A stretch of 64,000 nucleotides of DNA from Escherichia phage ECML-359 (OL631482.1); one strand, 5' to 3'. Shown: positions 1 to 54,264, numbered from the stretch's first letter. Numbers and translations: made by a program. Notes: generated by a model from the letters alone, not told the origin.

Positions 1-945
1 AATCCATTTGCATCGACCACAGAAACAGTGTTATCTGATGTTCTGCAAGAAGGTCTTATTGCATCGACTATTCGTTTAGTTCCTGATGCTGCACACACCG
101 AAAAATTCGAAGCTGGTGATGTTGAAATTAGCAATGCTGTATTCCAGGTTAATAAATGGAATGCTCCGGTTAAAACACGTAAATTGAAAACTGCATTAAC
201 TGTTGAACTTGCTCAGGATATGGAAGCAAATGGTTTTAACGCTCCTGCATTCTTGGAAGACCTGCTTGCCACTATTATGGCAGATGAAATTAACAAAGAT
301 GTTCTTCAGTCTCTTATTACCGTTTCCAAGCGTTATAAAGTAACTGGTGTTTCTGACAATGGCACCATCGATTTAACATACGATGCAGCCCCAGAAGGTG
401 CACGTAAACTGTACGAACTGGTTTGCGAAATGAACTCCGAAATTCAGAAAACTACATCTTATTCCGGTACCTTTGTTGTTGCCTCTAGCCGTGTTGCTGC
501 TATGTTGGCCGGTTCTGGTTGGTTGAAACACAGGCCAGAAGACGAACAGTGGCTCCCCGAAACAGCGTACGGTTATTTGATTAATGGCCTCCCTGTATTC
601 TGTGATGTTAACAGTCCATTGGATTATGTAACTGTTGGTGTTAAAGAAAATTACGGCGGAAACGAAGTCGTAGGCTCAATTTTCTATGCTCCTTATACCG
701 AAGGCCTGGACTTGGATGATGAAGAGCACGTTGGTGCGTTTAAGGTCATTGTGGACCCAGACAGCTTGCAGCCATCTATCTCTCTGATGGTTCGTTACGC
801 ACTTTCAGCTAACCCGTACACCGTTGCTAAAGACGATAAAGAAGCTCGTATTATCGATGCAACCAATATGGATTTAATGGCCGGTCAGAGCAATATGTCT
901 TATCTGCTCGGTGTTAAACTTCCGCCAATCATTTATGAGGCGTAA
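1..945 (+). CDS. gp24-like head vertex protein, paralog copy 1 (5' partial; reading frame open from window edge)
   Basis: Frame 1 is open from nt 1 and ends TAA 943-945. The product aligns colinearly with the C-terminal ~300 aa of the adjacent 427-aa gp24 ORF at roughly 60% identity (RKLKTALTVELAQDMEANGF, ANPYTVAKDDKEARIID, LGVKLPP). Confidence 0.8.
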   Translation, partial: NPFASTTETVLSDVLQEGLIASTIRLVPDAAHTEKFEAGDVEISNAVFQVNKWNAPVKTRKLKTALTVELAQDMEANGFNAPAFLEDLLATIMADEINKDVLQSLITVSKRYKVTGVSDNGTIDLTYDAAPEGARKLYELVCEMNSEIQKTTSYSGTFVVASSRVAAMLAGSGWLKHRPEDEQWLPETAYGYLINGLPVFCDVNSPLDYVTVGVKENYGGNEVVGSIFYAPYTEGLDLDDEEHVGAFKVIVDPDSLQPSISLMVRYALSANPYTVAKDDKEARIIDATNMDLMAGQSNMSYLLGVKLPPIIYEA

Positions 946-2229
946 ATGCAAAAGATTAATGCACTAATTCACGAATCAACATTAACGGCGGCCAACCAGG
1001 TCGCCCGTCCTAATTTGCTTTCTTATACCCAGGCTACGAATAAACGAATTTTTAAAGCACTCGTGGCCGAACAGAAAACTACCCAGCCTGTTGCAGCCCT
1101 GTATGGTGTTCGTGTTCTGAACCCAGATGATAAAATGACTTATCTCGGTGGAGCAACATTTGCAGGTCAGATTGGTATGTTCGAGCGTAAGAATATTCCA
1201 GAATTTACAAACAAAGACGAAGCTTATGCAGTCGGCGATATGTTCCAGTTTGAAAGTGTTGTGTTCAAAGTTTTGGAAGCATCCCCATTCGCCGGTACAC
1301 TCGAAACTGATTTAGGTGAAGTTATTTCTGAAGCCATTGCTGCTGGGCATATAAGAATGATGTCAGATGCTGCTTTCACTGATAAATTTGAAAAGGGGCA
1401 TCCTGAAATTGCTGAAGCTGGTTTTCGTATCGATAAATGGCAGACTGAAGTTAAATCCAGAAAGTTGAAAACTTCTTTAACTGTCGAGCTTGCCCAGGAC
1501 CTGGAAGCAAACGGTTTTGATGCAACAGACTTCATCGATAATATTCTCGGCATTCAAATGGCAGAGGAAATTAATAAGGATGTACTGCAATCTCTTATTA
1601 CTGTTAGTTCCCGTTTCAAGGTGCAAGGTGTTTCTGAAAAAGGTGTATTGAATCTTACTGACCCGAAATATGATAACGCACAGGACCGCGCACGAACCCT
1701 GTATTATTATATGTGTGAAATGAATTCTGCAGTTCAACGTCAGACTTCGTTTGCTGGTACATATGCAGTTGCTTCTTCCCGTTGTGCAGCTATTTTAGCC
1801 GCTTCTGGCTGGGTTGAGAAAAAGGAAGACCAGGATGAATTGGCCTATGGTGTTCTGAAGAACGGTTTGCCTCTTTACGCTGATATGAATAGTCCATGCG
1901 ATTATGTTATTGTTGGTGTAAATGCAGATATGGGTGAAGGTCAGACGGTCGCATCTTTATATTATGCGCCTTATACGGAAGGACTTAGCGAAGTTGATGA
2001 TGAGGGGGATACCTCGGTTGGGGAATTCAAGGTTATTGTTGACCCTGAAAGCTTACAGCCTACGGTTGCACTGTTAGCTCGTTATGCTTTGACTGCAAAC
2101 CCTTACACCGTTGCTAAAGATGATAAAGAAGCTCGCCTTATTGATGGAGCTGATATGGATAAGATGGCTAACCAAAGCCAATTGAGTTCTTATCTTGGCG
2201 TTAAACTTCCACCGCTGGAAAAAGAATAA
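946..2229 (+). CDS. 24: head vertex protein gp24
   Basis: 427 aa, same length as T4 gp24 and the expected position before rnlB. ATG lies directly after the stop of the preceding paralog. Confidence 0.85.
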   Translation: MQKINALIHESTLTAANQVARPNLLSYTQATNKRIFKALVAEQKTTQPVAALYGVRVLNPDDKMTYLGGATFAGQIGMFERKNIPEFTNKDEAYAVGDMFQFESVVFKVLEASPFAGTLETDLGEVISEAIAAGHIRMMSDAAFTDKFEKGHPEIAEAGFRIDKWQTEVKSRKLKTSLTVELAQDLEANGFDATDFIDNILGIQMAEEINKDVLQSLITVSSRFKVQGVSEKGVLNLTDPKYDNAQDRARTLYYYMCEMNSAVQRQTSFAGTYAVASSRCAAILAASGWVEKKEDQDELAYGVLKNGLPLYADMNSPCDYVIVGVNADMGEGQTVASLYYAPYTEGLSEVDDEGDTSVGEFKVIVDPESLQPTVALLARYALTANPYTVAKDDKEARLIDGADMDKMANQSQLSSYLGVKLPPLEKE

Positions 2230-2249
2230 GGGCCTTGCGGCCCTTTTTT
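2230..2249. terminator. bidirectional rho-independent terminator between convergent genes 24 and rnlB
   Basis: GGGCC-ttgc-GGCCC hairpin flanked by T-runs on both strands. Confidence 0.6.
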
Positions 2250-3255
2250 ATTCACTAATTAATGCAATCCATACATGTCTTAATGTTTCTTTTACATTTG
2301 CGATAAGTTGCTTTTTAACTTCAACAGGATTTTCTGTCTGGGTTAATTCAAGTCCTTCACGACCCGCTTCTTCCAGGATATCCTGAACAGTCAAACCCAT
2401 TACCTTCCCAAAATCCTTCGGCGATACTTCCCCAATCTTACTGATAACATTGTTAATACGGTTGACAGTCACATAATCAGTAAACTTCCATAAAACATCC
2501 AGGTCTTCCTGGGACAACACAACAGCAGCCTTAATAGGCTTATCAGACTTTTTCTTTTCGCTGAATTTAGAGTTCTTACATTTAATCGCTACACGCTCGC
2601 CGTTAGGTAACCATGCAGGAACATCAGGTTTTAATACAAATCCTTCAGCAGTGAATACTTTACCTTCCACCTTTGCATCAAAATCAGTGGTATTTGCTGT
2701 AGTCAATCCTGCGTTATCCACTGTAAAATTGTAATCAGGGACCACAGAATCCAGGTCATTAGGGAGCTTAATCAAGTCTTCAAAGCTTCCGGTAGCCAGG
2801 CGCGGAGCAACTTTAAACTTATGAATAATACAAAAGGCTTCCATCAGTGTGTCAGTCAGGACGGATTCAGTTCCATCTTCTTTAGTAACGCGAATATCAA
2901 ACACATAAAAATCTTTATCACCGTAATCCACATTCTTCTGGATACCTGCCCCGGCAAACTCACCATAAATCTGATATGCCTGGTAATTAATATCCTGCAA
3001 AAGTTTCTGCACAGATTTAATAGAATCTGCGTAGTTCTTTAATACAATTTCATAACCATAGAAATCTTCTGCAGGTAGGATAGGTCCAGTGCGTTTCGCG
3101 CATGTCACATTGTCTTGTTCAATGATTAATGAAAAGTTGGTACCATGAATTTTCTCACGAGCTACCCATTCACCGCTGGTGAAGCCTTGCAGGCGAATCT
3201 TTTCAATGAACTTGTTATTATAGTGATTTTCAAGGCTGTTGTATTTCTTAAACAT
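2248..3255 (-). CDS. rnlB: RNA ligase 2
   Basis: 335 aa with nucleotidyltransferase motif KIHGTNFS and strong resemblance to T4 Rnl2 (MFKKYSSLENHYN...). Syntenic with T4. Confidence 0.85.
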
Positions 3256-3352
3256 AATCTCTCACTTTTGATGTTATAAATATCATTATAAATTAGACCC
3301 GCTATACTTTCTTTCTTTGAAAGGAATTAATAGTCACAAAGGGTCTAGAACC

Positions 3353-3380
3353 ATTATACCGCATTTTTATTTGAAGCAAA
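3353..3380 (-). promoter_or_regulatory. T4-type middle promoter (MotA box TTTGCTTCA, 13-nt spacer, TATAAT) upstream of rnlB
   Basis: Minus strand reads cccttTTTGCTTCAaataaaaatgcggTATAATggttctagaccc. Matches the MotA-box consensus at about -30 with a sigma70 -10. Confidence 0.5.
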
Positions 3381-3385
3381 AAGGG

Positions 3386-3649
3386 TCAGAATTTTACATA
3401 CAGCATTGGCTTGGATTCTTGCCAATCATAATTCCAGGTAAAAGATGTAAATTTTTCTGCTCGCAGAAATTCAGATATCTTTGCGCGGTTTCCTTCTTCA
3501 TACTCTTTTTCAGAAACTGCCATATTAACAGCATCTTTGCCGTTCTCGGCGGCGGCAATAGCCACTTTGCGAAATATAGAAATAAAGTCATTTGCAACTT
3601 TATCTTGTGACTCTTTGGCTATTTGGCGTAGTTCTTCTGCGAATGTCAT
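3386..3649 (-). CDS. hypothetical protein (T4 24.2 position)
   Basis: 87-aa ORF in the T4 24.2 position. Confidence 0.5.
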   Translation of the reverse strand: MTFAEELRQIAKESQDKVANDFISIFRKVAIAAAENGKDAVNMAVSEKEYEEGNRAKISEFLRAEKFTSFTWNYDWQESKPMLYVKF

Positions 3650-3849
3650 TTCTTCACCTTTTTGTTATTCAAACGTTTACGATAAACAATCTTTTCTTTC
3701 GCTTTAAATTTAGCTTTGGCTTGTTCTACATCAACCCAGGCCTTTGCCATCTCTTTAGCAGTCCCGCCTAATACCTTGGCGATTTCAATAAATGTCATAC
3801 CAGATTCATGCAGAAAATGTACTTTAACCTTATCCATAATGATTCTCAT
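3646..3849 (-). CDS. hypothetical small basic protein (T4 24.3 position)
   Basis: 67-aa ORF with a lysine-rich C-terminus; its stop overlaps the downstream start. Confidence 0.5.
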   Translation of the reverse strand: MRIIMDKVKVHFLHESGMTFIEIAKVLGGTAKEMAKAWVDVEQAKAKFKAKEKIVYRKRLNNKKVKK

Positions 3850-3984
3850 GTTGAGTTAGTGAAGCTATCTTAACATGGAATTTTTAACTTGTAAACATGA
3901 TTTTTATGCCAGATGAACAATTGCATGGTATGGTCACAAAGACTCACTAGAGAAGGGTCCAGGTAACATTTGCCCAGTACCATA

Positions 3985-4012
3985 AAAATAAAGGGACCAA
4001 AGGTCCCTTTTT
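3985..4012 (-). terminator. rho-independent terminator downstream of hoc
   Basis: GGGACC-aaa-GGTCCC hairpin followed by a T-run on the minus strand. Confidence 0.6.
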
Positions 4013-4014
4013 AA

Positions 4015-5148
4015 TTAATAAACGTAATCGTATATAATACCAGTTTCTAAAGCGGTGCGATGAATAACTCGACCATTACGAGATTCTTGTACATCAACCT
4101 CTGGATAGTCGGTAATCATTTTTTGAAGTGTGTATCGGTGCAAATAATACGGGCTATCCGGGTCATCAGTTTTCCAGTCTTGGCCGGCAAGAGTCATTTT
4201 CTGAATTTCATCCATAACCCACCAACCACACCAGATATAAGCTGAATTACGTACTGGCAATGGGTGAATATATGGTAATTCGCCATCTGGAACTGGTGCG
4301 ACTTTAGCCGTGACTGTTACATTACCAGTTTTGGTAACGGTTACAGGGTTATAATCTGTAGCAGATACAACAACAGAAACTTCAATTAACTGGGAACCTT
4401 CGGCGCTTGTATCGATTGCTAAAGTATCCGTGGTACCAGCGACTGGTGAACCATCTTTCTTCCAAGAATAGGCAAAAGTAGCACCAGCAGGCGCACCGGC
4501 TACAGTAGCTTTAAAAGAAGCCGGAGTTCCTTCAGGAACATTAATAGAGGTCGGTGCTAAAGTAACAGAAACACCCGACATAGTTTTCTTAACAAAAGTT
4601 ACCGCAGCTCCTTTAGATGCGGTGCCATTATTATAATCGGGTGCAGAAACAGTAACTTCACAGTTCAATGTATAATTTGCTTCTGCTGATTCGGTGACGG
4701 TAATAGTTTTACCAGTTTGACCTGCGATTACGCTAGTGTTACGTTTCCAAACGTAAGCGATTGTTGCACCAGAAGGAGCGCCTGTCACGTTAGCAGTAAC
4801 AACTTGAGATTGCCCCACTTCTTTAGTAACAGAGGCAGGGTCTAAAGTCAATGTAATAGCAGGCATTGTTTTATTCTGGATAGTTAAAGTTGTCTCAGCC
4901 TCAGCAGTTTCCGGTTCACCGTCTGCCGGAGTGGTAGTTGCAACAACTTTAATAGTCTTACTGCCTGCTGGGCCAACAGCGACATAAGTCATTGCTGCAG
5001 TCACAGAAGATTGAGGAACGCCATCAACGGTCCATACAAATGATTCAACACCTTCAGCTGCAGCGCCAGACCCGGTTGCAGTGAAATTGGTTGTTGCTCC
5101 AATAACGGCCGTAGCCGCCAAAGGAGCAATAGCTACGGTATAAGCCAT
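4015..5148 (-). CDS. hoc: Hoc, highly immunogenic outer capsid protein (tandem Ig-like domains)
   Basis: 377 aa with repeated beta-rich T/V/A-rich modules and a conserved C-terminus (YIHPLP...WCGWWVMDEIQKMT...YYLHRYTLQKM) matching T4 Hoc. Confidence 0.85.
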   Translation of the reverse strand: MAYTVAIAPLAATAVIGATTNFTATGSGAAAEGVESFVWTVDGVPQSSVTAAMTYVAVGPAGSKTIKVVATTTPADGEPETAEAETTLTIQNKTMPAITLTLDPASVTKEVGQSQVVTANVTGAPSGATIAYVWKRNTSVIAGQTGKTITVTESAEANYTLNCEVTVSAPDYNNGTASKGAAVTFVKKTMSGVSVTLAPTSINVPEGTPASFKATVAGAPAGATFAYSWKKDGSPVAGTTDTLAIDTSAEGSQLIEVSVVVSATDYNPVTVTKTGNVTVTAKVAPVPDGELPYIHPLPVRNSAYIWCGWWVMDEIQKMTLAGQDWKTDDPDSPYYLHRYTLQKMITDYPEVDVQESRNGRVIHRTALETGIIYDYVY

Positions 5149-43640: not shown

Positions 43641-43648
43641 TATAAATA
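43641..43648 (+). promoter_or_regulatory. late promoter TATAAATA for gene 34
   Basis: TATAAATA about 31 nt upstream of the gene 34 ATG. Confidence 0.6.
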
Positions 43649-47643: not shown

Positions 47644-48774
47644 ATGGAAAAATTTATGGCAGAGTTTGGACAAGGATACGTCCAAACGCCAGTTATATCA
47701 GAAAATAATGCCGTTAAATTTAAAATGAGTATAGCAGGGAGCTGTACTCTTTCCACGGTGAAATCGTATATCAAATTTCAGGATGAACGAATTGGACCAA
47801 CTACTTTTGGTAATGGTCTGACTCTATTGGAAATTGATACAACTACGAATAAAATTGTTAACACGAAAAACTATTCATTAACTAGCACACATGATGCAAT
47901 CAGTCAGGCATTAATCACCTTTGTGGAATCTGTTCCAGCCGGAAGATTGATTGCTTTTATTTCTTCAGGGAAACTAAACGCATCACAGCCATTAATTGAT
48001 TGGTTCCGTAAATGTGGTTCAAGAGCATTCCCAGATAAATGGCTGATTGATAAAGTTGATACATCGTACTCGGCTTTTTACATAACCGGCCGGAATGTAA
48101 TTGTTTCGGAGCATGTTAAGTATAATGACGGGAAGTTAGTTGAGGATGTTTCGACTCCGCTTGAAGTCATTTATGATACCTTTAGTGATATAGGAGCAAC
48201 AGGCTATCCTGTACGCATAACGGAAGACGAGAGCACGTATTCATCAACAGGTGATGGAACATCAACCACAATTAAAAGGTTCCCCACAGAGGACCTGGTG
48301 ACTCCTATGGACACCTATAACCTTTTACCTTTGGATGTGCTTTACTTGAAGTTTCAGATGTCATTTGACGCTGCACTGAAAGCTGCGGGGACCGTAAGGA
48401 CTTCGGTTCGATTCTTTAAAAGCCCCAGCACTTCGCCGATATCAAATACAAACATCGATATCGCAGCAAACGTTCCTGCCGGGGCTTGGGCGAGTTTCGA
48501 AAGATATGTCGAGATTCCGCCAGGAGCTGATGGCTTTACAGTAGTAACATCAAGAACTGTAGCTACCGGAACTGGGTCAATACGCAATATTGTTATTGGT
48601 GAGATAACCAGAGGTGACTCTGCGTTCAAACCGGCTGAATTTGGTGTCAACGGCATAAGGATGTCATATGCAAACGATGCAACAAATACAGGCAATACAA
48701 TTGTAACATTCCCGGATGCGCAAGCTCCAAGAGCCGGCAAGATATACGCAGCCGAACTACGAGAAAAACAATAG
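47644..48774 (+). CDS. 35: long tail fibre hinge connector gp35
   Basis: 376 aa (T4 gp35 is 372 aa). Confidence 0.8.
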   Translation: MEKFMAEFGQGYVQTPVISENNAVKFKMSIAGSCTLSTVKSYIKFQDERIGPTTFGNGLTLLEIDTTTNKIVNTKNYSLTSTHDAISQALITFVESVPAGRLIAFISSGKLNASQPLIDWFRKCGSRAFPDKWLIDKVDTSYSAFYITGRNVIVSEHVKYNDGKLVEDVSTPLEVIYDTFSDIGATGYPVRITEDESTYSSTGDGTSTTIKRFPTEDLVTPMDTYNLLPLDVLYLKFQMSFDAALKAAGTVRTSVRFFKSPSTSPISNTNIDIAANVPAGAWASFERYVEIPPGADGFTVVTSRTVATGTGSIRNIVIGEITRGDSAFKPAEFGVNGIRMSYANDATNTGNTIVTFPDAQAPRAGKIYAAELREKQ

Positions 48775-48796
48775 GACTCTTCGGAGTCCTTTTTTC
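48773..48796 (+). terminator. rho-independent terminator after gene 35
   Basis: AGGACTC-ttcg-GAGTCCT hairpin followed by TTTTTT. Confidence 0.6.
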
Positions 48797-48798
48797 GT

Positions 48799-48806
48799 TA
48801 TAAATA
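48799..48806 (+). promoter_or_regulatory. late promoter TATAAATA for gene 36
   Basis: TATAAATA about 36 nt upstream of the gene 36 ATG. Confidence 0.6.
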
Positions 48807-48841: not shown

Positions 48842-49489
48842 ATGGCAGATTTAAAACTAGGCTCAACAGCCGGAGGTTCGGTCCTCTGGCACCAGGGTAA
48901 TTTCCCATTAACACCAGTCAGTAATGACTTATATTTCAAAACTTATAAAATTTATTCCGAATATAACAAGCCACAAGCAGTCGATAACGATTTTGTTTCT
49001 AAAGCTCTGGGTGGTAATTATAAAGCAAATGTGTATTTCGAACAGGGTCTGACATTTAACGATTCAAATGGTTACGGGATTAAGTTAGGAGCAAGAACAG
49101 GCGGAACACCATTTACAGCATCTTTCCGTATTAAAGGACCATTCGGATTTGAGACTGAAACGGGAACACCATTTGTTATTTTTGACCCTGATACTACGAC
49201 AGGAGCAAAACGTCTTACTGTTATGGGTGATACGTTAGCTCGACAAATTTATGATGAAACAGGTCGTGTATTTTCTCCAGGGAATACTCCGTCAAAAGCT
49301 CAAGTTGGTCTTGGTAATGTAACTAACCAGCAACAGGTAGAACTAAATAATAGTACATTGCAAACAATGACAGGTAACTTGTCAGCACCTAATTTCTTCT
49401 CTAGGAACCCAGCATCAGACCCGGCCCATGTGCCTCGTTTTGACCAAATCGTTCTTAAAGACTCCGTACAAGATTTTGGATATTATTAA
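48842..49489 (+). CDS. 36: long tail fibre distal connector gp36
   Basis: 215 aa (T4 gp36 is 221 aa). Confidence 0.8.
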   Translation: MADLKLGSTAGGSVLWHQGNFPLTPVSNDLYFKTYKIYSEYNKPQAVDNDFVSKALGGNYKANVYFEQGLTFNDSNGYGIKLGARTGGTPFTASFRIKGPFGFETETGTPFVIFDPDTTTGAKRLTVMGDTLARQIYDETGRVFSPGNTPSKAQVGLGNVTNQQQVELNNSTLQTMTGNLSAPNFFSRNPASDPAHVPRFDQIVLKDSVQDFGYY

Positions 49490-49497
49490 GAGGCATT

Positions 49498-52400
49498 ATG
49501 GCTACTTTAAAACAAATACAATTTAAAAGAAGTAAGGTTGCCGGCGTTCGTCCGGCGCCAACAGTTCTTGCTGAAGGTGAACTGGCTATCAACCTGAAAG
49601 ACCGCTTACTTTTTACTAAAGATGACACCGGCGCCATTATCGACCTTGGTTTTGCCAAAGGCGGTAATATTGATGGTAATGTTATTCATAACGGTAATTA
49701 CAATCAAACTGGTGATTATACCCTGAATGGTACTTTTACCCAAACTGGTGATTTTAATTTAACCGGCATTGCTCGTGTAACTCGCGATATTATTGCCGCG
49801 GGTCAGATAATGACTGAAGGTGGTGAACTTATTTCTAAGAGTGCATCGACTTCGCATCTTCGTTTTTTTGATGGTGCATCACGCGAACGCGGTATTATCT
49901 TTTCTCCTAACAATGCGGGTTTGACAACTCAGGTAGTTAATATACGAGTGCAAGATTATGCCGCTGGTAGCGAAAGCACTTACGCGTTTTCAGGCAATGG
50001 TCAATTTACTTCACCTGAAGTATCAGCATGGAAATCTATTTCATCCCCACAAATTCTGACTGATAAAGTTATTACAAATGGTAAGAAAGCTGGTGATTAT
50101 GATATCTATTCATTAGCAAATAATAATTCTAACACAGATAAAAATAATTTACGTGTTGTGCGTACTGATGCAGCCGCCGCAATGCTCCATGAAATTTGTG
50201 AAAATAACGGTATCAGTTGGTATTCTGGTTCAACCCCTACTGATTATATGTTATCTTTTGCTTATTCAGGTGGTTTTCAAGCTGGACATTCGATTGCAGT
50301 GGGTATGGAATCAGGGCCTATGACATATTCAGCCTTAGGTAAGGGTTCTATTGCTCTTGGTGATAATGACACCGGGTTAAAATGGTACCAAGATGGTTAT
50401 TTCTATGCAGTAAACAATGGTACGAGAACTTTCCTTTACAGCCCTGAATCAACTGTAAGCCTTAGAAAAATGGTCATGGGTTATTCTGTAAACGGTAACG
50501 ATTTAACTACGCCGCCGACAGAAAACTATGCGCTTGGTACCGTTGTTACTTATCATGATAATAATGCCTTCGGTGATGGACAAACTCTTTTAGGATATTA
50601 TCAAGGTGGAGCATATCACCACTATTTTCGTGGTAAAGGCACTACAAACATTAACACCACGGGTGGTTTGTTGGTTACTCCGGGTAATATCGATGTGATT
50701 GGCGGTTTAATTAATATCGACGGCCGCAGTAATGCTTCAACCTTACTGTTTAGTAGCTATACGTCTGGTCAAAGCTCTGTCGATAATATGAATATACGCG
50801 TTTGGGGCGATACTTTTACCACTGTAGACGGTACTCGCAAAAACGTAATGGAAATATCTGATGCTACTAGCTGGATGCAATATATTCAACGAACAACTGC
50901 TGGTAAAGTCGAATCGGTTCTAAATGGCTCCCAGATTGTTAATGAAAACCTGACCGTAGTAAAAAATGCTACATTTGATGGTACAATCAGCGCACATGGT
51001 GAAATTGCAGGTAATGCTGTTAATGCCCTTAGAATTTGGAACGACGATTACGGTGCTATTTTCCGTCGCTCAGAAGGAAGTCTTCATATTATTCCTACAG
51101 CGTTTGGTGAAGGACAGGGCGGTGATATCGGTCCACTTCGCCCATTTAGTATGGCTTTAGATACTGGTAAAGTTACTATTCCAGATTTACAATCAAGTTA
51201 CAATACGTTCGCAGCAAACGGCTATATTAAATTTGTTGGTCATGGGGCTGGTGCAGGCGGTTACGATATTCAATATGCACAAGCAGCTCCTATTTTCCAA
51301 GAAATTGATGATGCCGCAGTAAGTAAATATTATCCTATTGTTAAGCAGAAATTCTTACAAGGAAAAGCTGTTTGGTCTTTAGGTACTGAAATTAATTCCG
51401 GGACTTTTGTTTTACACCATCTTAAAGAAGACGGGACCGAAGGACATACCTCAAGATTTAATGCCGATGGTACAGTTAACTTCCCCGATAACGTGCAGGT
51501 TGGTGGTGGTGAAGCTACTATTGCCCGAAATGGTAATATCTGGTCCGATATTTGGAAAACGTTTACTTCAGCAGGCGATGTAACTAATATTCGCGATGCC
51601 ATTGCTACTCGTGTTGCTAAAGAAGGCGATACAATGACAGGCAAGCTGACAATAGAAGCCCCTGGTGATGCTTTAGTATTAAGAACAACTACAGGTAATA
51701 GTTCACATATCCGTTCTGATGTAAATGGTACCGGCAACTGGTATGTCGGTAAAGGTGGCAGCGATAATGGAATAGGCCTTTACAGCTATGCTACTAACTG
51801 TGGCCTGTATATCACCAATAACGGTGAATTCAACGTAGACCTTTCTGGTGCTGGTCTGGCAATGCAAATGAATTATTATCGCATGTATGTTAACGGTCGA
51901 GCATGGGTTAATACTCAAGGTCATGGTTACGGAAACCAATGGCAAACAGAAGCTCCTTATTTCGTTGACTTTGGTGAATCCGTTCCTAAAGATAGTTATA
52001 TGCCAATTATCAAAGGAAAAAGCACTCTAGCTACTGAAGGATATTCTACTAAAGCAGACTTCGGTATTATTCGATTAGGTGGAGCGGCTACCTGGGGTTC
52101 TGCTGTTATTCGTGTGGGTTCTGCTGAAAGCGGCGATGCAAGCCATCCTAATGCGATATACGTTTTTGGCGCCGACGGCACCTTAACCGCCCCTAATGCT
52201 TTGAATGCTGCGTCTCGAATGGGCATTGGTACATCATGTTCATTACCAAATGCTTCTATTGCTATTGGCGATAACGATACAGGTCTTGCTACTAGAGGTG
52301 ATGGTAGTCTAGGCGCGTATGCTAATGCGCAGAGTGTATTTTTCTGGGAAGCTGGCGGTATTACGACCGAGCAAAATAAGTTTCTAAACGTTAACGCCGG

Positions 52401-52764
52401 TATGTATGTTCGTGACAACATCGATGTTAACGACGTTTATATCCGTTCTGATATTCGCTGTAAGTCAGAAATTAAGCTTATAGAAAATGCCCAAGAGAAA
52501 TCTAAACTCTTAGGCGGTTATACTTATCTGCTTAAAAACTCTGTCACAGATGAAGTTAAACCGTCTGCTGGTTTAATTGCTCAGGAAGTTCAAGAAGTAT
52601 TGCCTGAACTTGTGACTGAAGATAAAGAGACCGGCTTACTTCGTTTAAACTATAACGGTATTATCGGTTTAAATACTGCTACTATCAACGAGCATACTGA
52701 CGAAATCAAGGAATTGAAATCTGAAATTGCTGAGTTGAAAGCATTAATTAAATCATTATTATAA
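49498..52764 (+). CDS. 37: long tail fibre distal subunit gp37 with C-terminal intramolecular-chaperone-like domain
   Basis: 1088 aa. C-terminus carries the SDxRxK-type motif ([13 protein letters not shown]) followed by a coiled-coil tail, typical of self-cleaving tail-fibre chaperone domains. Confidence 0.85.
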
Positions 52765-52793
52765 GAAAGGGCCTTCGGGCCCTGGAGGTTTTT

Positions 52794-53573
52794 ATGGCAG
52801 TAGTAGGAATTCCTGGTTGGATTGGAACATCAGCAGTGGCTGAAACAGGCCAGCGATGGATGTCTGCAGCGGCTGGACAGTTAAGATTGGGACTACCGGT
52901 ATCAATGTCGCAATTTGCTGGTCGGTCCCGTGAGATTATTCACACACTTGGTGCGGACCACAACTTTAACGGGCAATGGTTTAGAGACCGTTGCTTTGAA
53001 GCCGGCGGTGCTCCTATAGTGTTTAATATCACAGGCAACTTAGTATCATATACTAAAGATGTTCCGTTGTTCTTTATGTACGGTGATACCCCTAACGAAT
53101 ATGTTACTTTGAATATTCATGGTGGTGTTCATATGTGGGGCCGAGGTGGCAACGGTACAGTAAATGGAAGCCCGGGCACTAATGGTGGTGACGTAATCCA
53201 AAATGATATTGGTGGACGACTTCGCATTTGGAATTATGGTGTGATAGCCTCCGGTGGTGGTGGCGGCGGTGCCGCATCATTACAGAATAGTTGGCCTGCA
53301 AATGCTACAGCAGGTGGCGGTGGCGGCAGACCATTTGGTCTCGGCGGCGGTGGTGTTAATTGGCCAGGCGGCAATGCTAGTTATGATGGTCCAGGTGGCG
53401 GTGGTAATGCAAGCCAATTTGGCGGTGGCAATGGCGGTGATGCTGGAGGCGCTGGTGGCGCTGGATGGGGTAATAACTTATCCAGGTCGGGTGGTGGTGC
53501 TCCTGGTAGAGCAGTATTCGGTTCCTCCCCATCATGGGGCGCGACAGGCACTATCTACGGCTCATGGTTATAG
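52794..53573 (+). CDS. 38: gp38 tail-fibre adhesin, T2/K3 type with glycine-rich motifs
   Basis: 259 aa. Conserved N-terminal region followed by poly-Gly motifs ([50 protein letters not shown]) separated by short variable segments. Confidence 0.8.
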
Positions 53574-53584
53574 TACATAAGCGC

Positions 53585-53592
53585 TATAAATA
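53585..53592 (+). promoter_or_regulatory. late promoter TATAAATA for holin gene t
   Basis: TATAAATA followed by AAGGAG and the ATG. Confidence 0.6.
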
Positions 53593-53610: not shown

Positions 53611-54264
53611 ATGGAACCAAAAGTAGGAATATCAATACCCGACCTACTTTTTGGACTTCTTGATAGAATTTTTAAAGATAATGCGACCGGGAAAGTTGTT
53701 TTTTCCCGGGTACTAGTTATTGTTCTATTATTTTTAATGGCGGTAATCTGGTATAAAGGTGATGCACTTTTAGATGCGTACAGGGATGCTTCATATGCCT
53801 CATACACTGAAATGATAAGGCAAGACCAGGATAACAGATTTAAAATTGCAGCTATCGAGCAAATCCAGATAGTCCACTCGTCAAGTGGGGCAGACTTTAC
53901 AGCAATATATTCTTTTAGGCCAACTAACCTTAACTACTTTGTGGATATGGTGGGTTACGAGGGGATATTGCCTGATACAGTCGACGAAAAAAATTTAGGT
54001 GGGTTTCCAATAGATAAGACTTCAGCGGAATATTTGGCGGGGGTTAATGGTAATTATTTTGAATCCAGTGTGGAATCTGTATTCTTACCAACAAAGAAAA
54101 AAAGCAGCTTCACATATATGTTCAGCTGCCCATTCTTTAATTTGGAAAACGTTTATGCAGGCACAGTCTCACTGTACTGGTATAAGCAAAAACCCGACCT
54201 TGGTTTTGATAGGCTTTCTTCTATGTGTGGACAAGCAGGTCGTACGCTCGGGCGTACACGTTAG
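53611..54264 (+). CDS. t: holin T
   Basis: 217 aa, similar to T4 holin (...LFGLLDRIFKDNATGKV...LNYFVD...), with a single N-terminal TM segment. Confidence 0.85.
   Translation: MEPKVGISIPDLLFGLLDRIFKDNATGKVVFSRVLVIVLLFLMAVIWYKGDALLDAYRDASYASYTEMIRQDQDNRFKIAAIEQIQIVHSSSGADFTAIYSFRPTNLNYFVDMVGYEGILPDTVDEKNLGGFPIDKTSAEYLAGVNGNYFESSVESVFLPTKKKSSFTYMFSCPFFNLENVYAGTVSLYWYKQKPDLGFDRLSSMCGQAGRTLGRTR

Follow-up and report, generated by a model that had tools for sequence, protein, structure and literature searches.

Does the distal end of the long tail fibre of Escherichia phage ECML-359 follow the plan of T2, the classical case in which gp37 is processed and gp38 serves as adhesin, or that of T4, with gp38 as an assembly chaperone and gp37 carrying the receptor-binding site? 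And which receptor would this end meet? These questions are raised by two adjacent genes, g37 and g38, which together occupy 4,076 nucleotides (nt; positions 49498-53573, + strand) of the window analysed here, i.e., a 64,000-nt stretch of DNA from this phage (OL631482.1). A preliminary description, made from the sequence alone, had proposed that gp37 sheds a C-terminal chaperone domain by self-cleavage and that gp38 is a glycine-rich adhesin of the fibre tip; the two open reading frames (ORFs) that it delimited, 49498-52764 and 52794-53573, both on the + strand and encoding 1088 and 259 amino acids (aa), proved exact. We hold it to be very likely that the module is the host-recognition end of a T2-type long tail fibre, belonging to a T-even coliphage of the Tevenvirinae (Gaprivervirus/Dhakavirus type), and no evidence contradicting this assignment was found.

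The gp37-gp38 module

The two proteins, and the parts of gp37 that matter most for the assignment, are the following.

49498-52764, + strand: gp37, long tail fibre distal subunit of T2 type, 1088 aa (PHROG 1699; annotated homologues, including that of VR5)
52240-52446, + strand: gp37 aa 915-983, beta-helical distal tip with DVYIR as its last residues (alignment with residues 22-91 of S16 gp37 in 6F45_A)
52447-52464, + strand: SDIRCK, gp37 aa 984-989, predicted Ser984/Lys989 autoproteolysis motif (in register with S16, T2 and MYRF)
52447-52761, + strand: gp37 aa 984-1088, intramolecular chaperone domain with C-terminal amphipathic helix (Pfam, alignment to 6F45_A, heptads)
52794-53573, + strand: gp38, T2-type fibre-tip adhesin, 259 aa (Pfam, PDB, PHROG, AlphaFold2/Foldseek)

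The identity of gp38 is indicated by family, sequence and fold. The Pfam families GP38 (PF05268; expectation value, E, 9e-82, 274.6 bits, profile positions 1-218 of 218) and Gp38_N (PF21721; aa 1-42, E 1.4e-17, positions 1-40 of 40) together span all of the protein, which is also matched end to end by PHROG 2056, "tail fiber protein; host specificity". At the sequence level it matches the receptor-binding domain of PP01 gp38 (PDB 9V85, E 2.5e-73) and S16 gp38 (6F45_D, E 6.9e-49). Furthermore, an AlphaFold2 model built on 55 homologues (mean predicted local distance difference test, pLDDT, 88.5; predicted template modelling score, pTM, 0.80) was superposed by Foldseek on 9V85_C with a target-normalised template modelling score (TM) of 0.91 and 1.5 Å root-mean-square deviation (rmsd), and on 6F45_D with TM 0.85/0.89; besides these folds, the Foldseek comparison with the PDB returned nothing better than E 3.

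The authors of the S16 gp38 structure distinguished three domains, namely a helical one for attachment, which bears three tryptophan (Trp) prongs, then a beta-helix, then a polyglycine-II sandwich, and proposed that the hypervariable loops joining the glycine-rich motifs form the receptor-binding site. Family matches and modelling support the same construction for the gp38 of the window, i.e., a T2-type adhesin, as the preliminary description had it, with helical attachment domain, beta-helix and polyglycine-II sandwich. Its parts are laid out as follows.

52794-52919, + strand: gp38 aa 1-42, three-helix attachment domain (Gp38_N; model helices 10-18, 23-29 and 38-41)
52920-53252, + strand: gp38 aa 43-153, conserved beta-helix body (entropy 0.8 bits; beta strands in the model; ratio of nonsynonymous to synonymous substitution rates, dN/dS, 0.01-0.05)
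53157-53183, + strand: variable loop in the beta-helix body, aa 122-130 (column entropy)
53253-53498, + strand: gp38 aa 154-235, glycine-rich motifs and hypervariable segments (glycine columns, entropy, superposition on 6F45_D and 9V85)
53253-53276, + strand: GGGGGGAA glycine string, aa 154-161
53271-53312, + strand: variable segment 1, aa 160-173 (entropy; A161, P168 and A169 differ from OmpF-validated adhesins)
53313-53354, + strand: second glycine-rich string, aa 174-187
53349-53393, + strand: variable segment 2, aa 186-200 (entropy; G199 the sole difference from Bas47 and RB51)
53394-53471, + strand: third glycine-rich string, aa 201-226
53400-53423, + strand: variable segment 3, aa 203-210, GGNASQFG (entropy; holds Q208, the counterpart of RB51 Q206)
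53442-53489, + strand: variable segment 4, aa 217-232 (entropy; A220, A223 and N228 differ from OmpF-validated adhesins)

Glycine makes up 26% of gp38, with 37% in aa 110-259 vs 12% in aa 1-109, and it is because of this richness that the content of guanine plus cytosine (GC, 0.52) and the GC-skew (+0.30) spike at positions 53000-53499. In an alignment of the window gp38 with 117 homologue clusters, glycine runs do alternate with variable segments, as had been proposed: mean entropy in the C-terminal domain is 0.69 bits for glycine and 1.54 bits for non-glycine columns (Mann-Whitney p 7e-7). Glycine is invariant at G154-158, G175-178, G201, G212, G214-215 and G221, and entropy falls near zero at GRGGNG (116-121), G154-159, GGGGGRPFG (174-182) and GGNGGD (211-216), with high-entropy blocks at aa 122-130, 160-173, 186-200, 203-210 and 217-232. 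The profile reproduces the published scheme of glycine-rich motifs and hypervariable segments (PMC3157838). All the glycine strings quoted in the preliminary description were located in gp38; the third, presented there as one run, rather combines conserved motifs with two variable segments.

PHROG 1699, "long tail fiber protein distal subunit", covers gp37 from end to end, and the last 105 of the 1088 residues of this subunit form the S74 domain that had been anticipated for its tail. Pfam Peptidase_S74 (PF13884, "chaperone of endosialidase") is matched along its whole length (positions 1-58) by aa 984-1040, with 46.7 bits and E 3.9e-12, above its curated cut-off of 22 bits. Moreover, aa 915-1087 align to the tip and chaperone domain of S16 gp37 (PDB 6F45_A, E 2.1e-33), with SDIRCK falling on SDRRIK of S16 so that the Ser and the Lys of SDxRxK are in register. 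A weak match of the last 123 residues to the auto-processing domain of MYRF (7DC3, E 0.013) also places (A)DLRAK in register, and in T2 gp37 the equivalent motif, SDIRLK, lies within the same Pfam domain. SDxRxK occurs once in gp37, as RSDIRCK at aa 983-989 (nt 52444-52464), inside the interval of about 52440-52470 first indicated for it. The coiled-coil tail that was said to follow the motif does exist, since the last 30 residues have an amphipathic heptad pattern (78% hydrophobic a/d positions in the best register); it does not adjoin the motif, from which this helix of ~30 residues is separated by ~70 residues of chaperone-domain body.

The Ser-Lys pair (S984, K989) stands at the N-terminal boundary of the S74 domain with the canonical five-residue spacing, and from the established knowledge of this family we take it to be the catalytic dyad. 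Processing of T2 gp37 was reportedly described by Drexler et al. in 1986. In S16, gp37 loses its last 113 residues by autocleavage at DLNVS^SDRRIKK, which uncovers the gp38 docking surface, and in the fPS phages cleavage has been predicted after DVYIR (PMC7917993). By analogy, the folding aid built into the gp37 of the window most likely cuts itself off, the cut being predicted between R983 and S984, with release of 105 residues; after their departure, gp38 is predicted to dock on the surface formed by aa 915-983.

Both model systems resemble the module in organisation and differ from it in detail. S16 (PDB 6F45) has the same beta-helical gp37 tip, S^SDxRxK motif, chaperone domain and three-domain monomeric gp38; in contrast, its gp38 is ~46% identical by structure alignment, with different loops, its junction reads DLNVS^S instead of DVYIR^S, it keeps all three Trp prongs, and its receptor is Salmonella OmpC. 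T2 (AP018813) has S74 in gp37 and the GP38 family in gp38, in the same arrangement, whereas its gp38 is 51.5% identical (53% in the specificity region), its gp37 of 1341 aa has an unrelated shaft, and its receptor is FadL (PMC8594841).

Receptor specificity of gp38

As receptor we lean towards the porin OmpF, possibly together with the lipopolysaccharide (LPS) core, a prediction drawn from sequence relatedness. Within the specificity region (aa 160-232), identity is 82-86% with the OmpF adhesins of AlbertHofmann/Bas47, FL33, fPS-2 and fPS-90, vs 53% for T2 (FadL), 36% for T6 (Tsx) and 30-43% for M1, FL08, AV119 and FL18 (OmpA). Dependence on OmpF has been reported for Bas47, with complementation (PMC8594841), for FL33, with a minor effect of TolC (PMC12032242), and for RB51 (bioRxiv 10.64898/2026.04.02.716166), while the receptors of fPS-2 and fPS-90 are OmpF plus the LPS core (PMC7917993). 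Over the whole protein, gp38 is 85-92% identical to those of RB51, Bas47, FL33, fPS-2 and fPS-90, with near-identical segments 1 and 2 and a conserved core of segment 3; RB51, at 85.3%, has near-identical variable segments. These phages differ from that of the window in being Tequatrovirus/Mosigvirus, in ten loop substitutions and in having W37 instead of S37. The glutamine that is critical for OmpF in RB51, Q206, is kept as Q208.

Diversifying selection in the loops was considered and rejected: dN/dS of aa 160-232 is 0.08-0.22 (Nei-Gojobori, seven close relatives), above the 0.01-0.05 of the beta-helix and far below 1. That it should be so low despite a synonymous divergence (dS) of 0.4-0.9 argues for a conserved binding function within the clade. 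In turn, the relatedness of gp38 has been found to predict the receptor in two independent studies, one of them the RB51 work (bioRxiv 10.64898/2026.04.02.716166).

Several points weigh against an OmpF-directed fibre of T2 type. The processing of gp37 in this phage, and the location of gp38 in the virion, we infer from homologues, and the attachment domain has Ser37 at the site of its third conserved Trp. In the loops, ten positions (A161, P168, A169, G199, G203, N205, A206, A220, A223 and N228) are unlike those of all four OmpF adhesins, and RB51 differs from the window gp38 at the same ten; the sub-allele of variable segments 3 and 4 is common only to NC-G, pEC-M719 and, partly, VR5. No relevant receptor data were found in the literature for NC-G, pEC-M719-6WT.2, VR5, UGJNEcP4 or EAWsc9, among them the phages with the exact sub-allele. 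In RB51 the single change Q206L suffices to switch the receptor from OmpF to OmpW (bioRxiv 10.64898/2026.04.02.716166), and G203, N205 and A206 adjoin Q208, so that private changes lie two to three residues from the switching position. Lastly, Bp7, with OmpF-like variable segments 1-3, is stated in a second-hand account to use LamB and OmpC (PMC10987938).

These loop data are what would favour a T2-type module that uses a receptor other than OmpF (OmpW, OmpC, LamB, a particular OmpF allele, or LPS) by virtue of its private substitutions in segments 1, 3 and 4. Such an outcome is possible, but we regard it as rather unlikely: against it stand the much higher identity to OmpF binders than to the other receptor classes, the retained Q208, the clade-wide dN/dS well under 1 and the predictive value of gp38 relatedness in both studies.

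As regards Bp7 itself, its variable segments 1-3 match those of the OmpF-dependent RB51 and Bas47, which constitutes a conflict within the literature. Its gp38 record (NC_019500) diverges fully after ...GGRGGE and runs long, in the manner of a frameshift.

Attachment, processing and the comparison with T4

Of the three prong positions of the attachment domain, W9 and W22 are present and the third is Ser37 (codon TCA, nt 52902-52904); in the model each of the three immediately precedes a helix, as an N-cap. Among 118 clusters, position 37 is occupied by Trp in 99, Tyr in 12, Ser in five and Asn in two. The set of three Trp is thus frequent, not universal, and Ser37 is compatible with membership of the gp38 family. 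The codon lies within a short stretch of different history.

52840-52960, + strand: divergent, recombinant patch in g38, ~120 nt, including codon 37 (55-82% nt identity to NC-G, pEC-M719 and VR5, vs 92-100% in the flanks)

Along g38, dS is 0.8-1.0 in codons 1-42 vs 0.04-0.26 downstream, and we read the patch as a short insertion that recombination brought in from another lineage. Of 50,697 phage records, only that of Escherichia virus TH41 (MT446412, Gaprivervirus), with the same Ser37, shares it. A related N-terminus, with W22S and W37S, is encoded by a metagenomic contig (L011, Logan SRR32678537; gp38 at 4001-4798), whose gp37 (723-3971) is 98-100% identical to that of the window in the tip and chaperone domain. 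The gp37 tip is identical in VR5, NC-G and this contig, and no co-variation of the tip with Ser37 of gp38 was seen, the tip being the same whether the phage has three, two or one Trp.

TH41, which carries Ser37, came from raw sewage and was isolated on E. coli in infective form; a lock of three Trp would thus seem not to be an absolute requirement, although this is a minor point. The broader proposition, that the S16-type three-fold lock is dispensable and that, in addition, the adhesin recognises a receptor or porin allele other than that of the characterised OmpF binders, appears to us improbable.

A degenerate S74-like domain that fails to cleave and stays on the mature fibre is a very improbable alternative to self-removal. 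Apart from the Ser-Lys dyad at its canonical spacing, the DVYIR^SD junction is identical in the fPS phages and nearly so in T2, and conservation of the S74 domain is 98-100% across mosaic gp37s, in spite of their divergence elsewhere. Furthermore, docking of gp38 needs an exposed tip (PMC7917993).

With T4 the module has in common its position in the locus and the homology of gp37 aa 1-641 (35% identity). Beyond aa 641 of the window protein the two gp37s are dissimilar: that of T4 ends in Collar and needle receptor-binding domains, has Pfam matches to Collar and Phage_fiber and is devoid of S74, whereas the window gp37 ends in S74 and has no Pfam match to Collar or Phage_fiber. No similarity of gp38 to T4 gp38 is detectable (BLASTP E 0.99). 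The difference from T4 asserted in the preliminary description is thus borne out, and the identity of gp38 as a T4-type assembly chaperone was ruled out by this direct comparison of both proteins. That gp38 would be only a chaperone, with the receptor-binding site on gp37, is likewise very improbable: several homologue records do bear the label "chaperone" or "distal long tail fiber assembly catalyst", and T2-type gp38 does have a chaperone role before staying on the fibre (PMC7917993), but, besides its dissimilarity to the T4 protein, gp38 matches, over its full length and in fold, the adhesins of S16 and PP01, whose crystal structures are those of fibre-tip proteins, and its gp37 ends in a removable chaperone domain instead of the T4 ones.

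The T2-type reading, as we envisage it, would run as follows. To judge from promoter motifs, one late transcript probably carries g36, g37 and g38. gp37 would then form a trimeric beta-helical fibre, its folding nucleated by its own C-terminal domain of 105 residues (aa 984-1088). Once the trimer is formed, Ser984/Lys989 would sever the R983-S984 bond and let the chaperone domain leave, as homology to S16 and T2 suggests. On the flat tip thus uncovered, ending in ...DVYIR, one gp38 molecule would dock through its three-helix N-terminal domain. Its beta-helix would bear the polyglycine-II "sandwich" of invariant glycine motifs, in keeping with the family match and the model superposition, and the variable segments, as distal loops, may touch an outer-membrane protein of the host; for this last step, less certain than the others, OmpF is the most probable partner, perhaps with the LPS core. 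What the analysis itself demonstrates of this reading is the identity of the genes and domain families, the register of the motif, the fold of gp38, its pattern of variability and its unrelatedness to T4 gp38.

Genomic setting and relevance

The surrounding genes and signals, together with a further domain of gp37, are listed below.

43641-43648: late promoter motif TATAAATA 5' of g34 (exact-pattern search)
48773-48790: second GC hairpin with a UUCG tetraloop, intercistronic, after g35
48799-48806, + strand: T4-type late promoter motif TATAAATA 5' of g36 (exact-pattern search; a consensus match only)
48842-49489, + strand: gp36, small distal half-fibre subunit linking gp35 to gp37 (position and size as in the annotated VR5, T2, RB51 and T4)
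50827-51147, + strand: gp37 aa 444-550, internal homologue of the trimerisation domain at the C-terminus of gp34 (Pfam PF21446, E 2e-07)
52768-52783, + strand: tetraloop hairpin GGGCC-UUCG-GGCCC within the 29 nt separating g37 from g38 (folding; minimum free energy -14.4 kcal/mol)
53585-53592: late promoter motif TATAAATA 5' of t (exact-pattern search)
53611-54264, + strand: holin t, end of the fibre operon (Pfam Phage_holin_T, E 1.8e-66)

ORFs of 1318, 376 and 215 aa precede gp37 and one of 217 aa follows gp38, giving the order g34-g35-g36-g37-g38-t annotated in VR5, T2, RB51 and T4. As in VR5, T2 and RB51, g38 stands directly 3' of a g37 with a C-terminal chaperone domain and 5' of t. The domain at gp37 aa 444-550 also matches the gp34 structures 4UXE and 5NXF in the PDB (E about 5e-15); the gp37 proteins of T4 and T2 match PF21446 as well, the module being common to proximal and distal half-fibres. 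In the hinge protein gp35, aa 57-128 (nt 47812-48027) match Pfam ILEI, "Interleukin-like EMT inducer" (PF15711; E 1e-06, 29.5 bits, cut-off 27), a surprising label on a fibre protein.

Late promoter motifs stand before g34, g36 and t, and the exact-pattern search of the window found none directly before g37 or g38; their placement suggests that g36-g37-g38 would form one late transcription unit. In all, the window holds 10 matches to TATAAATA vs 4.9 expected. The scan for sigma-70 promoters gave no excess over chance (16 found vs 15.4 expected), and terminator-like hairpins were in marginal excess only (7 vs 4.3). The hairpin of the g37/g38 spacer is followed by GGAGG at 52784-52788, five bases 5' of the g38 ATG; its stability relative to shuffled sequence is not significant (z -1.58), and it may have a role in mRNA stability or translational coupling.

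The closest genome is that of TH41, a deposited record that, unlike those cited above for gene order, has no annotation. It is 99.8% identical in nt across all 4,076 nt, with a single protein difference in gp37 (T95A) and another in gp38 (A223N), vs 97.5% across the flanking 25 kb (window 39000-63900). The phage of the window is therefore a distinct but close relative with the same receptor module, and g37-g38 would be either better conserved than the backbone between the two phages or recently exchanged.

Mosaicism is usual in the distal fibre genes of T-even phages, and it is because gp37 is mosaic that no more than four phage records span 80% or more of the region. EAWsc9 is 100% identical to the window gp37 at aa 1-500 and 751-850, VR5 is 84-100% identical at aa 201-450 and 701-1088, and NC-G and pEC-M719 are 100% identical at aa 1001-1088 only. 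This patchwork indicates what would be repeated recombination in the shaft.

The module formed by gp38 and a gp37 with chaperone domain is an ordinary, already well-characterised system, understood in mechanism since the 1980s and resolved in structure since 2018. It opens no new biological question; its relevance lies mainly in annotation and practical phage work. To what was known, the present analysis adds the predicted position of the cut, to the residue, a map of the segments, the probable OmpF specificity with the caveats given above, and the recombinant patch that carries the Ser37 variant. As regards annotation, TH41 is unannotated and several relatives mislabel gp38 as "assembly catalyst/chaperone" or "hypothetical". 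For host-range engineering, nt 53271-53489 constitute the segment to swap or mutate. Finally, a T2-type adhesin with probable OmpF specificity predicts the host range of the phage and the way in which its hosts may become resistant, through mutations in ompF/ompR or in the LPS core.

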